Source: an uncultured Clostridia bacterium
GTDB lineage: Bacteria > Bacillota > Clostridia > Christensenellales > UBA1242
Direction: 5' to 3'
Assembly (NCBI GenBank): GCA_944384415.1
Contig: CALWTF010000022.1
Location: 20,116 to 84,115 of the forward strand
DNA: 64,000 nucleotides
Of the stretch, positions 60,676 to 63,814 are shown one piece after another. The position numbers were made by a program, and so were the translations under genes. The notes under the pieces were generated by a model. The model was given only the letters and a program-made list of their open reading frames with translations. It was not told the origin of the DNA and did no database searches. The stretch's first letter is position 1. Each line of letters begins with the position of its first letter.

Positions 60676-60883
60676 AAATAAAATCCTCCTTTAAAGTTGT
60701 TATATTATAAATTATTTAAAAAAATTTAACAAGTAAAATTATATATATTAATAAAAGTTTTGTTGAATTTTATCTATAATAAAATGATGAATATTTTATA
60801 AAATAATCATATGTCCGAAGATTAATTTAATGTTTTAATAATAAATGATAAAATTATTAAATAGCTTTATGTATTTAAAATAA

Positions 60884-62011
60884 CTACAAAACAATGACAA
60901 TCTTTTAACATTTAAATATGGCGTTGATGGAGTTATTGGATTTACTTATGCAGGCGTTGGTGAATATTTCTATAAAAAGAATATTTTCGGCGACATTATT
61001 GGCATTATCGACAGCAATGAACAAGAAATTGCTAAATATGTATATGATGCTTGGGGAAATCACAAAACATATGTATTAAATGATGGACAATACTTTGACA
61101 TTTCAGAGAATTTGAGTTATATTAATAGTGGTTTAAACAATAAATTTATTGCTGAACTTAACCTATTCCGTTATCGTGGTTACTACTATGATATTGAAAC
61201 AGGTCTGTACTACTTAAATAGTAGATACTATGATCCAGAAATCGGTAGATTTATCAATGCTGATGATATTAGCTACTTGGATCCAGAATCAATTAATGGT
61301 TTGAATTTATATGCATATTGTGTTAATAATCCTACTAATCTTTCTGATGAAACTGGTTGTGCTTGGTGGGATTGGTTAATTAGCGGATTACAAATCGTTG
61401 TTGGTGCAGTTCTTGTAGCAACTGGTGTCGGTGCTGGGTTCGGTGCAATGTTAATCGCTGGTGGAACTATTGGATTAATTTCTAATGCTGTTGGTAGTGC
61501 AATTGGTGGTGGCATCGGTTCTGTTGTTAATGGTGGTGGTGCAATTTCAACAGGAATTTCCCTTTTCTCCTATGGTCCTATAGGAATTATTGCCGGAATT
61601 GGATTAATTGCCGTTGGCGCAGCAACTGCCATAATGGGAACAAATGAAATCGCTCGTGGTATAACTGGACATAATTATATACAGGAATGGACTGGTATGA
61701 GTGATTCATTATACAGCGGATTGTATTTAGGATTTAACCTAGCGTCATCAATTGGAACAATTGCTGCTAGATTAGGAATGCGCTCTATATCATCAATAAA
61801 TTCCAACAATGCAGAAATACACTATAAACCTTATGGGAAAATAAATACTGGTAAAAATATTTATTATTATGATGGTAAAGGTAACCCATATTGGGCCATC
61901 CACAACTTCGGGAAAGCAACTCAGCATTGGCACACTAGTTTGGGAAGAGACGGAGAACATATCTATAGCTATCTCAAATTTATCATTAAATTTATATTTA
62001 GAAAATGGTAG
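60884..62011 (+). pseudogene. 5'-truncated RHS/YD-repeat polymorphic toxin tail (orphan C-terminal cassette)
   Basis: Frame opens right after the TAA at 60881-60883. It reads YD-repeat/core sequence ([77 protein letters not shown]), then a variable tip. No ATG/GTG for ~190 codons and no SD. TAG stop at 62009-62011. Confidence 0.75.
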
Positions 62012-62037
62012 CAAATTCTTTAAAAGGAGGTTTTATT

Positions 62038-62376
62038 ATGAAAGATAAGAATGGAAATAACGATTTATCATTAGATTTGCAAAAAAAACTAAATATATTT
62101 GATCATGCACCTAAAAATTCTAAAATTAGTAGTTTCCTGACATGGTCAGAGTTTAGTATGATTTTTGTAAATACAAAACTTATTTTCCCTTTAGCATATG
62201 GAACAACAAATTTTGAGTTAATTAATTGTGGGAATAAATCAATTTTGACTATTGACTACAAGGATGCTGATAATGATTTGATTTTTAATTATAATTCAGC
62301 TCAAGATTTATTAAACAAAGCGATAATTAATAATAAACCTTTGAGAGATATTTGGAATGATGTAATAATTGGTTAA
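62038..62376 (+). CDS. candidate cognate immunity protein (112 aa, no TM, no family recognised)
   Basis: AAAGGAGG SD 7 nt upstream of the ATG at 62038, 27 nt after the toxin stop, followed by a strong terminator. The position is typical of polymorphic-toxin immunity genes. Confidence 0.5.
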   Translation: MKDKNGNNDLSLDLQKKLNIFDHAPKNSKISSFLTWSEFSMIFVNTKLIFPLAYGTTNFELINCGNKSILTIDYKDADNDLIFNYNSAQDLLNKAIINNKPLRDIWNDVIIG

Positions 62377-62395
62377 TGATCTATTTGATTCACTA

Positions 62396-62432
62396 AAAAA
62401 CATAAACAGCATAATGTTGTTTATGTTTTTTA
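62396..62432 (+). terminator. rho-independent terminator after the immunity candidate
   Basis: 10-bp perfect stem AACATAAACA / TGTTTATGTT, 9-nt loop, T-run. Confidence 0.7.
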
Positions 62433-62449
62433 TTACATTTTTTAAAAAA

Positions 62450-62518
62450 AATGGCATTGAAATTGTTCGCTATGCTTATGATGGTATTTCTCGACTTGTT
62501 CATGAGGACAATAAAAAA
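62450..62518 (+). pseudogene. short RHS/YD-repeat shard
   Basis: Reads NGIEIVRYAYDGISRLVHEDNKK, a single YD repeat (YxYDxxxRL). No start, no continuation. The rest of track ORF 62369..62710 runs antisense into rarA. Confidence 0.4.
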
Positions 62519-62575
62519 GCTACTTCTTATATGTTAATTAATTTTTATATCAAATCTGTATTTTCTAACACTTTT

Positions 62576-63814
62576 TTATTTCTTTTTGATGTCTTTTCTA
62601 TTAAAATATTTTCTATCTTTCAAACTATCTGGCAAATATTGTTGCTTTACATAACCACCATAATCATGTGGATATTTATATTTTTTGCTTGCTTCTGTAT
62701 GATTTTTTAAATAATCTGGAACATTGTCATCTGGATGATTTTTTGCATCATCTTGAGCCATATTCATAGCAACTACCACTCTATTATCTTTTGGTGATTC
62801 ACACACATATATTATTGCTTGAGTTAATGCTAAATTCCCTTCTGGCATTCCCAAATGGTCAAGTGCGTACAAACTTGCACAAGCCTGAAGTAACGCATTT
62901 GGCGCAGATAAGCCTACATCTTCCGAGGCGTGTGCTATAAGTCTGCGACTTAATATCTGTGGTTCTATTCCAGCTTCAATAAGCCTGTTTGCATAGTATA
63001 ATGCTGCTGTTGAATCACTGCCACGAAGACTTTTGCAAAAAGCACTTAGTAAATGATAATATAAATCCTCATCTAAACTTAAAGCCTTCTTTTGTAAACA
63101 CTCAGCTGCAATCTCTTTATTTATAACTATTTCGTTATTTTTATTAGGAGATGTAGTTATAACCCCAATTTCCAAACCGTTAAGAGCACTTCGAACATCA
63201 CCAGAACTTGCATCTGCAAAATAACCAAGAGCATCTTCATCTATTTTAATTTTATGTGCTTTTAAATTAATATCTGTTTCTATAGCCTTTTTTAAAACAA
63301 GTTTTATATCTTCAGCCGATAACCTTTTAAACTCGAAGATTGAACATCTAGAAACGATTGCCCTTGTCATACTGTAACTAGGATTTTCAGTTGTACAACC
63401 AATAAAGTTAATATACCCATTTTCAAGAGCTGCCAACAATGAATCACTTTGTGCTTTACTCCACCTATGACATTCGTCAAGTAATAAATAAGTCCTTTTA
63501 CCATATAATTCAAATTCATTCTTAGCTTTCTCAATAATTGATTTTACTTCGGCAACACCACTTGATATTGCATTAAGTTTTACAAAGTTTGAATTGCTTG
63601 TATCAGCTATAATTCTTGCAAGCGTTGTCTTCCCTGTTCCTGGTGGACCATAAAATATTACACTTGGAACCATTTTTGACTCTATAAGCCTACGAAGCAA
63701 TTTTCCAAAACCAATTATGTGCTTTTGTCCAACAAAATCATCAAGATTATTAGGTCTCATTCTTTCTGCTAATGGTTTTTTATTATTGTTTAAATTTTCA
63801 AACAAACTTTGCAT
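62576..63814 (-). CDS. rarA: replication-associated recombination protein A (RarA/MgsA)
   Basis: LAERMRPNNLDDFVGQKH, Walker A GPPGTGKTT, Walker B LLLDECHRW, C-terminal MgsA block (YYHLLSAFCKSLRGSD, PHDYGGYVKQQYLP). Confidence 0.95.
   Translation of the reverse strand: MQSLFENLNNNKKPLAERMRPNNLDDFVGQKHIIGFGKLLRRLIESKMVPSVIFYGPPGTGKTTLARIIADTSNSNFVKLNAISSGVAEVKSIIEKAKNEFELYGKRTYLLLDECHRWSKAQSDSLLAALENGYINFIGCTTENPSYSMTRAIVSRCSIFEFKRLSAEDIKLVLKKAIETDINLKAHKIKIDEDALGYFADASSGDVRSALNGLEIGVITTSPNKNNEIVINKEIAAECLQKKALSLDEDLYYHLLSAFCKSLRGSDSTAALYYANRLIEAGIEPQILSRRLIAHASEDVGLSAPNALLQACASLYALDHLGMPEGNLALTQAIIYVCESPKDNRVVVAMNMAQDDAKNHPDDNVPDYLKNHTEASKKYKYPHDYGGYVKQQYLPDSLKDRKYFNRKDIKKK

Follow-up and report, generated by a model that had tools for sequence, protein, structure and literature searches.

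C-terminal displacement gives rise to orphan rhs-CT/rhsI modules in Enterobacteria such as Salmonella, E. coli and Dickeya (PMC3150448, PMC3967940). In S. Typhimurium, the rhs genes, both main and orphan, form internally expressed type II toxin-antitoxin (TA) modules (PMC7043789), and orphan immunity genes and arrays have been described for the Vibrio cholerae T6SS arrays (PMC5361080) and for Serratia Rhs immunity (PMC10539506). Glycine-zipper membrane toxins are carried by Rhs and LXG proteins such as P. aeruginosa Tse5 (PMC9637101, PMC10684867) and S. aureus EsxX (PMC12744356); EsxX shows that toxins of this type can be neutralised by a soluble immunity protein (PMC12744356).

Here we describe an accessory islet located between the rbr (rubrerythrin) and rarA genes of an uncultured Clostridia bacterium, within a window of 64,000 nucleotides, the whole stretch of DNA analysed. 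Like the enterobacterial orphans, this islet consists of a 5'-truncated rhs gene devoid of its own start codon, with part of the shell and core, a variable tip and an immunity gene downstream, and in its clade as in Enterobacteria, homologous recombination through the conserved part appears to shuttle tips into and out of the expressed gene. Unlike the enterobacterial orphans, it is not preceded by a full-length rhs gene: it is the "main" gene that appears beheaded, and the whole array headless. An orphan cassette is expected to follow a full-length rhs gene on the same strand, an arrangement absent from the window and present in the related loci L001-L005, L044 and L059-L061. The host also differs, being an uncultured low-G+C gut member of the Bacillota without T6SS context, whereas the enterobacterial orphans are proteobacterial, and the arrays of its relatives sit in a prophage-like element. 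The islet resembles the TA-type rhs loci of Salmonella in combining an orphan toxin fragment with an immunity gene while the delivery part is missing; it differs from them in having no supported internal promoter or start, and in tolerating nonsense alleles. As for orphan immunity genes, for which the proposed gain is protection against non-kin, the immunity gene stays intact across strains while the toxin decays; here, however, there is a single gene rather than an array, and its protective role is putative.

The rbr-rarA islet carries a 5'-truncated RHS end

A previous sequence-only reading of this DNA proposed that the islet holds the tail of an RHS toxin without its gene body, in a frame opening directly after a TAA codon. 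Indeed, TAA at 60881-60883 is followed by 375 open codons (60884-62008) and a stop codon at 62009-62011, and a run of 376 stop-free codons has a chance probability of ~3e-13 at the base composition of the window. The three peptide strings quoted in that reading were all found by direct reading of the frame, and its description of the frame's start holds: the first ATG is codon 189 (61448), there is no GTG, and none of the three in-frame TTG codons (77, 132 and 140) is accompanied by a Shine-Dalgarno sequence. The upstream DNA, described as AT-rich, has a G+C content of 12% over 208 bp (60676-60883) and is closed in the toxin reading frame. Counting against a decayed remnant, the window, L053 and, with a different tip, L050 all have an open toxin frame, and its dN/dS against relatives is 0.11-0.30, implying either that decay is recent or that the frame is kept for some use.

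Codons 1-158 (60884-61357, plus strand) encode the last YD/RHS shell repeats and the RHS-associated core, equivalent to residues ~1499-1660 of the 1,856-aa RHS protein of L005. Of the two profiles put forward for checking the RHS assignment, NCBIfam TIGR03696 (Rhs_assc_core) matched with 70.4 bits (cut-off 32.5, E=1.4e-19) over residues 91-158, directly before the variable tip, and the repeat model PF05593 gave no match; in the full-length homologues L005 and L001, PF05593 scores 74 and 51 bits, respectively (cut-off 22). The AlphaFold model of residues 1-124 is beta-rich and resembles the solved RHS/YD shells of teneurin, TcdB2-TccC3, RhsP and RhsA (Foldseek probability 1.0, E about 1e-3). 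By tblastn, the fragment is 63% identical to residues 1499-1731 of the L005 RHS protein, and the DNA of 60884-61357 is 82-83% identical to each of three copies in L005, with homology to the intact rhs gene beginning at ~60887. Conservation at the core/tip boundary was judged on an alignment of 48 sequences. In the region of the autoproteolysis motif PxxxxDPxGL, P150 and D155, both invariant, and the nearly invariant G158 are kept and the Pro of DPxG is replaced by Glu; the window copy further bears P94L (61162-61164) at a nearly invariant Pro. Missing are the complete shell, which in RHS toxins exceeds 1,000 aa, and its N-terminal export/plug region; only the equivalent of residues ~1499-1856 is present. 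A tblastn search of the 64 kb with three full-length relatives retrieved, outside the islet's toxin frame, only a 77-bp rhs scrap (62442-62518), as anticipated from the claim that the window contains no full-length rhs gene. The RHS core, the shell end and the strain variability described below support the proposed toxin tail lacking a gene body.

No promoter, ribosome-binding site or start codon was detectable for the toxin fragment, and a scan of the islet region returned promoter-like matches at chance level (18 found, 18.0 expected). Having neither these signals nor a shell or an N-terminal export domain, the fragment could presumably be neither made nor delivered as an RHS toxin, and it is most likely dead in its present location. 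A TA-like module, in which an internal promoter and a non-canonical start would yield a cytoplasmic toxin restrained by the immunity protein, would offer it a function. Gene callers do begin a 299-aa product at TTG 61112, a near-consensus sigma-70-like site (TTGACA-17-TATATT) lies at 61095-61123, the L049 frame starting at TTG 61112 is open despite a frameshift and a compensating deletion, and an orphan of L044 can likewise be called as 299 aa from a TTG in the same position. However, the -10 box of this site (61118-61123) is downstream of TTG 61112, which makes this promoter useless for that start, strains differ at 61117 and 61122, and no Shine-Dalgarno sequence precedes any in-frame start ahead of the tip. 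Together with the chance-level promoter count and with the persistence of a nonsense codon, W164*, in two strains whose immunity gene is intact, these data make a TA-like module very unlikely.

A two-part toxin tip is followed by a candidate immunity gene

The toxin tip is made of two parts. The first (residues 159-302, 61358-61789, plus strand) is composed of long hydrophobic Gly/Ala/Ser-zipper helices (residues 160-302 in the model), with eleven small-xxx-small-xxx-small motifs within residues 175-218 and two segments of Kyte-Doolittle hydropathy above 1.6. This helical module also recurs C-terminally in about 21 proteins (1,000-2,300 aa), the extreme C-termini of which differ in some cases. 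In some relatives, other C-terminal domains come after the helical part, suggesting that it acts as a pre-toxin or in translocation and is not itself the toxic moiety; this part may be either a membrane-inserting or a pre-toxin module. Like Tse5 and EsxX, it has long hydrophobic helices with repeated small-xxx-small motifs, here directly after the RHS core. Comparison of the tip with Tse5 gave no significant match in sequence or fold (Foldseek probability 0.35), and part 1 bears a weak, non-significant likeness to Tse5, AhlB and V-ATPase c subunits. A PDB sequence search with the tip returned only AopB (E=7e-4), a match of hydrophobic segments that we judged compositional.

The second part (residues 303-375 and the stop codon, 61790-62011, plus strand) is a small beta-rich domain with a terminal helix, carrying the conserved motif KPY...YDG.G..YW..H...HWH..GRD..H and confidently modelled (mean pLDDT 86). 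This conserved domain of 75 aa has no counterpart in Tse5 or EsxX and co-varies with the immunity type: it exists as two sequence variants, each paired with its own type of immunity gene. Taken alone, it had no significant Foldseek match in the PDB (best E=0.43), and Pfam matched neither the toxin fragment nor the immunity gene, so that the modelled domain appears to match no known fold. The HWH..GRD..H pattern and the helix had brought to mind an HNH, or beta-beta-alpha-Me, nuclease; these searches lent the idea no support, as no metal finger with a catalytic His was recognisable, Pfam gave no match and the best nuclease hit in Foldseek, EsaD, had E=1.6 and probability 0.35.

Three elements downstream of the toxin frame had been missed by the sequence-only reading: an immunity gene (62038-62376), a terminator and the 77-bp rhs scrap. 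On direct reading, a Shine-Dalgarno sequence, AAGGAGG (62024-62030, plus strand), lies 7 nt ahead of the start codon of the plus-strand immunity gene, which encodes a soluble protein of 112 aa; its maximum hydropathy of 1.0 indicates that it has no transmembrane segment. All five same-species contigs spanning the gene carry an intact copy, and its dN/dS is 0.27-0.36. The same toxin variant precedes a 76%-identical homologue in the rhs array of L044 and in L045, and the 87- and 93-aa genes found after the other toxin variant are distant kin (29% identity, E=1e-5). We consider the 112-aa protein a candidate cognate immunity protein of the tip, paired with it by context only. The family has no match in Pfam or NCBIfam. 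The promoter scan yielded no convincing plus-strand promoter upstream of the gene; if it is transcribed, as we suppose, it may still protect the cell.

The terminator scan placed an intrinsic-terminator-like hairpin of 18 pairs followed by a T-run at 62394-62432 (plus strand; inverted repeat 95% complementary). Because A/T runs flank the hairpin on both sides, it may work in both directions. Beyond it lies the scrap of rhs shell repeat (62442-62518, plus strand; ..NGIEIVRYAYDGISRLVHEDNKK), which corresponds to residues 1355-1379 of the L005 RHS protein (tblastn, 88% over 25 aa, E=1e-8), represents the start of a further cassette and ends after EDNKK. Its DNA is 92% identical to the L005 main gene and 84% identical to the L005 fragment located after orphan 2 and its immunity gene. 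An ORF at 62369-62710 (113 aa) was rejected as a gene, being a composite of the rhs scrap and the reverse strand of the 3' end of rarA.

A common breakpoint points to one ancestral beheading

Comparison of the rbr-rarA junction across strains had been proposed as a check, and it showed that the islet is present, absent or variable within one species. Same-species contigs from 12 other samples were retrieved through cluster members of Rbr and of the toxin fragment, and their flanks are 97-99% identical; a scan of genome contigs matched only distant MAGs named "Christensenella sp." and "Clostridia bacterium". The insert, previously put at ~1.7 kb, could be delimited more closely: the strain-variable segment is 60770-62428 (1,659 bp), and 60676-60769 belongs to rbr. 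The surrounding run of more than 50 minus-strand genes that had been described is in fact broken by plus-strand ORFs (30891-32270 and 52606-54117) and by tRNAs (30226-30759).

The rbr upstream region (60676-60769, minus strand) is context outside the insert, common to all alleles including the near-empty L057, which is collinear as far as 60769; it is 98-99% identical in L049-L058 and contains promoter-like sites for rbr on the minus strand at 60766-60738 and 60732-60704, identified as consensus matches only. The left edge of the strain-variable DNA is an AT-rich junction segment of 114 bp (60770-60883), whose terminal TAA closes the frame. This segment is 100% identical in all islet-bearing alleles (L048-L054 and L056), is missing in L057 and is not homologous to the intact L005 rhs gene. 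On the other side, a right junction of 57 bp runs from the rhs scrap to the rarA stop codon (62519-62575); it is common to L057, L051-L053 and L043 and differs in L049, where, in common with the related species L012, an 84-aa Cys-rich gene comes next after rarA. A gap of 71-74 bp separates rarA from rbr in the distant relatives L020 and L047, in which the two genes are neighbours. The islet lacks detectable flanking direct repeats, att-like sites and target duplications.

Every islet-bearing allele has the same breakpoint, 60883/60884, which points to one ancestral beheading. The same junction bears on the concern that AT-rich upstream DNA was misjoined and that a complete rhs gene is truly contiguous with the tail. 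It is known that short-read assemblies can break at rhs repeats or be misjoined there, and the stub is close to the end of several contigs; yet the succession of rbr, 114-bp segment, TAA and stub is identical to the base in eight independent assemblies of separate samples (L049-L054, L056 and the window), leaving such an artefact with next to no plausibility.

At least five structural alleles exist among the same-species contigs. The window form is found in L053/L048 and L043, and the window form with W164* (TGG to TGA at 61374) in L051 and L052; TGA is read as a stop because the sole tRNA-Trp found in the window has the anticodon CCA. Allele L050 joins the stub to the L005 main tip, followed by the imm126 gene, a fragment, a 216-aa gene and a tail-fibre gene. 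In L049, which like L050 is a form with another toxin tip, two cassettes have their core motif destroyed by the same 1-nt deletion, together with an internal deletion, and in L057 everything is deleted except the scrap, which is kept in this otherwise empty allele. The nonsense codon in two strains, the destroyed core in one and the near-total loss in a fourth favour a relic over the other option of the sequence-only reading, a silent reservoir, which we retain as a rival.

Intact arrays in relatives and exchange of tips

The same tail occurs downstream of full-length rhs genes in L001-L004 (1,952-1,977 aa), in L005/L059-L061 (1,856 aa) and in L044. The intact array of L059, L060 and L061 (L005 was cut from the full contig L059) sits within a prophage-like element and comprises, in this order, an ArpU-type regulator gene, the 1,856-aa rhs gene with its immunity gene, two displaced (orphan) pairs of toxin tip and immunity gene, another rhs fragment and a tail-fibre gene. 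The order of stub-tip, immunity gene and scrap in the window is collinear with orphan 2, its immunity gene and the following fragment of L005, and the right flank of L005 is 97.6% identical to L050 over 1,897 bp. A scan of viral contigs with the single protein had no match, and an alignment-based scan retrieved 41 predicted viral contigs with RHS cores.

Exchange of tips is apparent in both settings. Comparison of L002 with L001 shows that the L002 main gene has received a copy of an orphan tip (99.5% over 374 aa). Among the same-species alleles, a ~14%-divergent tract (60940-61246) stands amid otherwise ~99%-identical DNA, and all four combinations of two stub haplotypes with two tip types occur; these four-gamete combinations and mosaic tracts show that the stub recombines. 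The cassette might therefore be a silent reservoir, kept to recombine through its conserved 470-bp shell/core with a full-length rhs gene, either elsewhere in the genome or brought in on an element, to which it would hand a new tip and immunity pair, by a mechanism established in Salmonella (PMC3967940). This explanation overlaps with the relic reading. It is consistent with the open frame of the window, L053 and L050, with the recombination of the stub and with the copying event in L002; moreover, several metagenome contigs end in or just before the stub (L054 at 60939, L056 at 61009), as expected of repeated or polymorphic sequence, and the population contains a circulating intact element whose flanking DNA is 97.6% identical. 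Against it, the cassettes disabled or lost across strains argue that there is no consistent selection for retention, and no full-length rhs gene is present on the same-species contigs covering the islet locus or in the window. We therefore regard a maintained reservoir as unlikely.

Discussion

Taken together, our results support the conclusion, to which we assign a probability of roughly 0.7, that the islet is the eroded, beheaded tail of a polymorphic-toxin (rhs) locus whose first ~1,500 codons are gone. We favour a remnant of a whole rhs array that lay here over a cassette displaced from another rhs locus; the head may have been lost at this site, or the array may already have been truncated on arrival. 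In the sequence of events that we propose, an array located between rbr and rarA would have lost the first ~1,500 rhs codons together with all DNA upstream. Homologous recombination between repeated shell-end sequences of ~300-470 bp would then have deleted or swapped cassettes, yielding the five or more structural alleles. In the window allele, the stub would have been fused to the tip corresponding to the second orphan, with retention of the second-orphan immunity gene, the terminator and a 77-bp piece of the cassette that comes next. If transcribed, the immunity gene would shield the cell when neighbouring cells with an intact element deliver this toxin, and the conserved stub would stay a recombination substrate for incoming intact rhs genes.

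A bolder extension holds that the arrays of this clade, which have an ArpU-type late regulator immediately before the ~1,850-aa RHS gene and a tail-fibre gene immediately after the array, are cargo of a phage-derived element, providing a possible route for RHS production or delivery, that the stub is a live, tip-exchanging landing pad and that the 75-aa domain is an undescribed toxin fold; we consider this combination quite improbable. If the phage-cargo part were true, it would reveal a phage-derived RHS toxin route in Gram-positive gut anaerobes, and if the landing-pad part were true, the stub would swap tips with elements re-entering the strain.

Orphan toxin-tip/immunity modules generated by C-terminal displacement in rhs loci are already a well-known kind of object, and the value of this locus is mainly descriptive. 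For annotation, it carries a warning, as two predicted ORFs are artefacts, namely the 299-aa "gene" with TTG 61112 as its start and the ORF of 113 aa at the rarA end. It defines an unannotated toxin tip and an immunity family, frequent in metagenomes of the gut with 136 clusters at the 50% identity level, and it places the rhs arrays of these low-G+C gut Bacillota in prophage-like elements beside rarA. Above all, it offers a natural decay series of a headless rhs array within one uncultured gut species.

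A truncated rhs end lies between rbr and rarA

The 1.9 kb separating rbr (60121-60675, minus strand, left flank) from rarA (62576-63814, minus strand, right flank) are read on the plus strand. A 375-codon frame opens right after a TAA (60881-60883) and stops at 62009-62011; given the window's composition, the chance of an open frame this long is ~3e-13. Residues 91-158 match the RHS repeat-associated core model, NCBIfam TIGR03696, with 70.4 bits (cut-off 32.5), whereas a Pfam search of the frame gave no match, PF05593 included, and only one of the two models proposed for checking the translation thus responded. 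In an AlphaFold model of the fragment, built with 48 homologues as input (mean pLDDT 76), residues 1-124 form beta strands, residues 125-156, around the core/tip boundary, are uncertain, residues 160-302 form long helices and residues 304-375 a small beta-rich domain. Foldseek showed that residues 1-124 resemble solved RHS/YD shells (teneurins, TcdB2-TccC3, RhsP, RhsA). The frame, the core match and the shell matches therefore confirm that an RHS toxin tail sits between rbr and rarA, as the sequence-only reading had observed. Its statement that the first ~190 codons contain no ATG or GTG was also borne out: ahead of codon 189, the in-frame start candidates are only three TTG (codons 77, 132 and 140), none of them with a Shine-Dalgarno sequence. 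The 299-aa 'gene' of the public annotation (61112-62011) was rejected, TTG 61112 being an arbitrary start within the truncated rhs frame.

Downstream lie three parts that the sequence-only reading had not listed. A 112-aa ORF (62038-62376, plus strand), with AAGGAGG ahead of it at the right distance, is followed by a hairpin of 18 pairs with a T-run (62394-62432) and by a 77-bp piece of rhs shell repeat (NGIEIVRYAYDGISRLVHEDNKK, 62442-62518). As protein, this scrap has 88% identity to a full-length relative (its residues 1355-1379); the DNA identity is 84-92%. No further rhs sequence was recovered from the 64-kb window by tblastn with three full-length RHS proteins as queries, in agreement with the earlier claim that no full-length rhs gene occurs there. 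A 113-aa ORF (62369-62710) was not retained as a gene, since it is the scrap continuing into the antisense of the rarA 3' end.

Relatives carry complete rhs arrays

Homologues of the fragment number in the thousands, the best 120 all being 200-660 aa long, and where contigs are long the homologous tails show the classical rhs arrangement. In three human-gut MAG contigs (L001, L003, L004), a 1,952-aa rhs comes first, an immunity gene second and then, ahead of more small genes, a 380-aa orphan with 61% identity to the frame in the window. In the related locus L002, from a human-gut sample as well, the main rhs gene encodes 1,977 aa, of which the last 374 are 99.5% identical to the L001-type orphan. 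Comparison of L002 (1014-11143) with L001 (3744-11143) shows the orphan's four downstream genes present as a second copy after the main gene, and the old tip displaced downstream with its immunity gene. L002 is a direct natural example of an orphan copied into the expressed main gene, by duplication; such copying has been described in Salmonella (PMC3967940).

L059, the full contig from which locus L005 was cut, carries in order a 1,856-aa RHS, imm126, a 500-aa orphan, imm81, a 381-aa orphan, imm93, an rhs fragment, a 216-aa gene and a tail-fibre gene, and the same element is found in L060 and L061. The 381-aa orphan is 74% identical to the window in protein and 87% in DNA. The full-length proteins of relatives pass the Pfam RHS_repeat model. 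Stub and tip, immunity gene and scrap (shell residues 1355-1379) follow one another in the window just as orphan 2, immunity gene and fragment (residues 1299-1433) do in L005. The earlier reading of a tail without a gene body, a relic or a reservoir, holds, with the refinement that the islet is what is left of an entire rhs array after loss of its head and not a stray cassette.

A stranded 100-aa rhs shell scrap, 83% identical to residues 1477-1576 of the L005 RHS, was also seen in L009 (149-448), from a MAG labelled Christensenella sp., where it adjoins an unrelated ACT/metallo-beta-lactamase-type gene. Such stranded pieces of rhs may be frequent in the group.

Stub-bearing alleles of the species share one breakpoint

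Same-species contigs from 12 other samples, with flanking genes 97-99% identical to those of the window, were reached from the clusters containing its Rbr and the fragment. The comparison of the rbr-rarA junction across strains, as the sequence-only reading had advised, yielded a series of five alleles. L053/L048 and L043 have the same content as the window (99.5% identity across 1,805 bp for L043). L051 and L052 (MAG GCA_949289705.1) keep the window's structure but with TGG changed to TGA at 61374 (W164*), which acts as a stop, since CCA is the anticodon of the sole tRNA-Trp detected in the window. In the third allele, L050, the same stub is joined to the tip of the L005 main gene in an open frame (87% aa identity), followed by imm126, an rhs fragment, the 216-aa gene, a tail-fibre gene (phrog_5717, E=7e-25), an IS200-type transposase gene and ypsA. 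The fourth, L049, has two cassettes and then an 84-aa Cys-rich gene adjoining rarA, a gene also present in the related species L012. Both cassettes (3271-3729 and 4776-5561) carry a 1-nt deletion after codon 80 (after ..LSYI) and an identical internal deletion that restores the frame and removes the core motif; this identical double damage means that the copies were homogenised, or duplicated after the damage. In the fifth, L057, 185 bp of unrelated AT-rich DNA take the place of 60770-62428, and the scrap (62442-62518) is retained.

In all stub-bearing alleles, the AT-rich 114 bp (60770-60883) and the junction TAA/CTACAAAAC are identical, and homology to the intact rhs gene starts at ~60887. 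An assembly artefact is excluded, the same junction being present in eight independent assemblies. The simplest reading of the identical junctions is a single beheading, that is, one loss of the 5' part of the gene, in a common ancestor. The right flank of L005 is 97.6% identical to L050 across 1,897 bp, so that the population in which the intact element circulates must be the same or a very close one.

Two stub haplotypes are ~14% divergent at 60940-61246, within surroundings ~99% identical. Haplotype 1 occurs with tip A (window, L053) and with the main tip (L049), and so does haplotype 2 (tip A in L051 and L052, main tip in L050). Since all four combinations are present, there has been recombination between the repeated cassette shell ends; deletion between tandem copies, gene conversion or exchange between strains could have been the route. 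The orphan 5' ends in L005 (7670-7680) and L049 (~4300) lie at shell residues 1371-1377 (REDNKK), and the window's 3'-truncated scrap (62518/62519) stops at shell residue 1379 (EDNKK). This boundary recurs in an A-rich stretch (GACAACAAAAAA) in the window, L005 and L049.

State of the toxin and immunity genes

Salmonella-type internal expression of the toxin fragment (PMC7043789) found no support here. The window's frame is open but has neither a start nor a ribosome-binding site, it lacks a shell, and promoter support for it is nil, the region holding 18 promoter-like sites against 18.0 expected. The window's stub carries P94L (61162-61164; AELNLFRYRG) where every other allele reads NPFRYRG, replacing a nearly invariant core Pro kept in at least 90% of homologues. 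Against relatives, dN/dS of the toxin lies at 0.11-0.30 and that of the immunity gene at 0.27-0.36, values that show past constraint, not the present state. Of the same-species contigs that span the toxin tip or the place it once had, three have the frame open (window, L053, L050), three have it disabled (L051, L052, L049) and one has lost it (L057); all five contigs that carry the 112-aa immunity gene have it intact. Small as they are, these numbers fit a dead toxin accompanied by a possibly useful immunity gene.

The toxin tip consists of two parts

The first part of the tip (residues 159-375), residues 159-302, comprises hydrophobic helices rich in small-xxx-small motifs. An exhaustive search found this module in 136 clusters, in ~21 of which it stands at the C-terminal end of proteins 1,000-2,300 aa long, several of these having another extreme C-terminus after it. 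The pattern is compatible with a pre-toxin or membrane-translocation module, and also with a glycine-zipper pore former like Tse5 or EsxX (PMC9637101, PMC10684867, PMC12744356); the structural likeness of the window's tip to these was not significant. Residues 303-375 form a small, confidently modelled domain (pLDDT 86) with a conserved HWH..GRD..H motif and no fold match in the PDB. This domain exists in two sequence variants, that of the window, followed by the 112-aa gene (window, L044, L045), and another followed by an 87/93-aa gene (L001, L005); the two immunity types are distant homologues. Such co-variation points to the last domain as being, putatively, at least the immunity-binding part. 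The 112-aa protein has no transmembrane segment, and its sole library match is that of its last 28 residues to the uncharacterised phage family phrog_3711 (E=1.6e-5).

Insertion site and phage-like setting

In the more distant relatives L020 (RarA 59%, Rbr 65% identical to the window) and L047 (58% and 77%), rarA and rbr are directly adjacent, 71-74 bp apart, with ytxC and thrS next in line, an order also seen in the window. Compared with this layout, the rhs locus is an insertion. Among closer relatives (RarA 72-93%), the DNA after rarA varies contig by contig. In L014, L033 and L039 the first genes there are homologous to the 116-aa and tail-fibre genes closing the rhs element in L050 and L005; with these element ends beside it, the rarA 3' flank appears to be the usual seat of the element in the genus.

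In the related species L012, L013, L016 and L033 (RarA 80-93%), the post-rarA genes are different in each contig, the sets being an 84-aa Cys-rich gene with ypsA, a membrane protein with lepA, pcrA with ligA, and tail-collar-like genes; the 3' flank of rarA is a hot spot of rearrangement in the genus. L014 has tandem rarA-like genes (736-1656 and 2352-3584), whose identities to the window's RarA are 57% and 80%. T-boxes before thrS and L20 leaders before infC-rpmI-rplT are usual in many Bacillota; at Rfam gathering thresholds, the 64-kb window yielded five tRNAs only, with no T-box upstream of thrS (58952-59253) and no L20 leader before infC-rpmI-rplT (56836-57037).

Among the genes in the left part of the intact element are several of phage type, for a DNA helicase (phrog_62, E=5e-135), for an HNH endonuclease, for an ImmA-type protease paired with an Xre repressor and, immediately upstream of rhs, for an ArpU-type regulator (phrog_36). 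The array is bounded by this regulator on one side and by the 216-aa gene and a tail/tail-fibre gene (phrog_5717) on the other (L059 19-4449 and 15059-16568; L050 1-3900), and RHS thus sits where phage late structural genes would be. RHS cores also occur in 41 predicted viral contigs (IMG/VR). The islet is probably the remnant of a decayed prophage-like element. Objects of this kind are already known; more study might be worthwhile for the tip, which is uncharacterised, and for the phage-like surroundings of the intact arrays.
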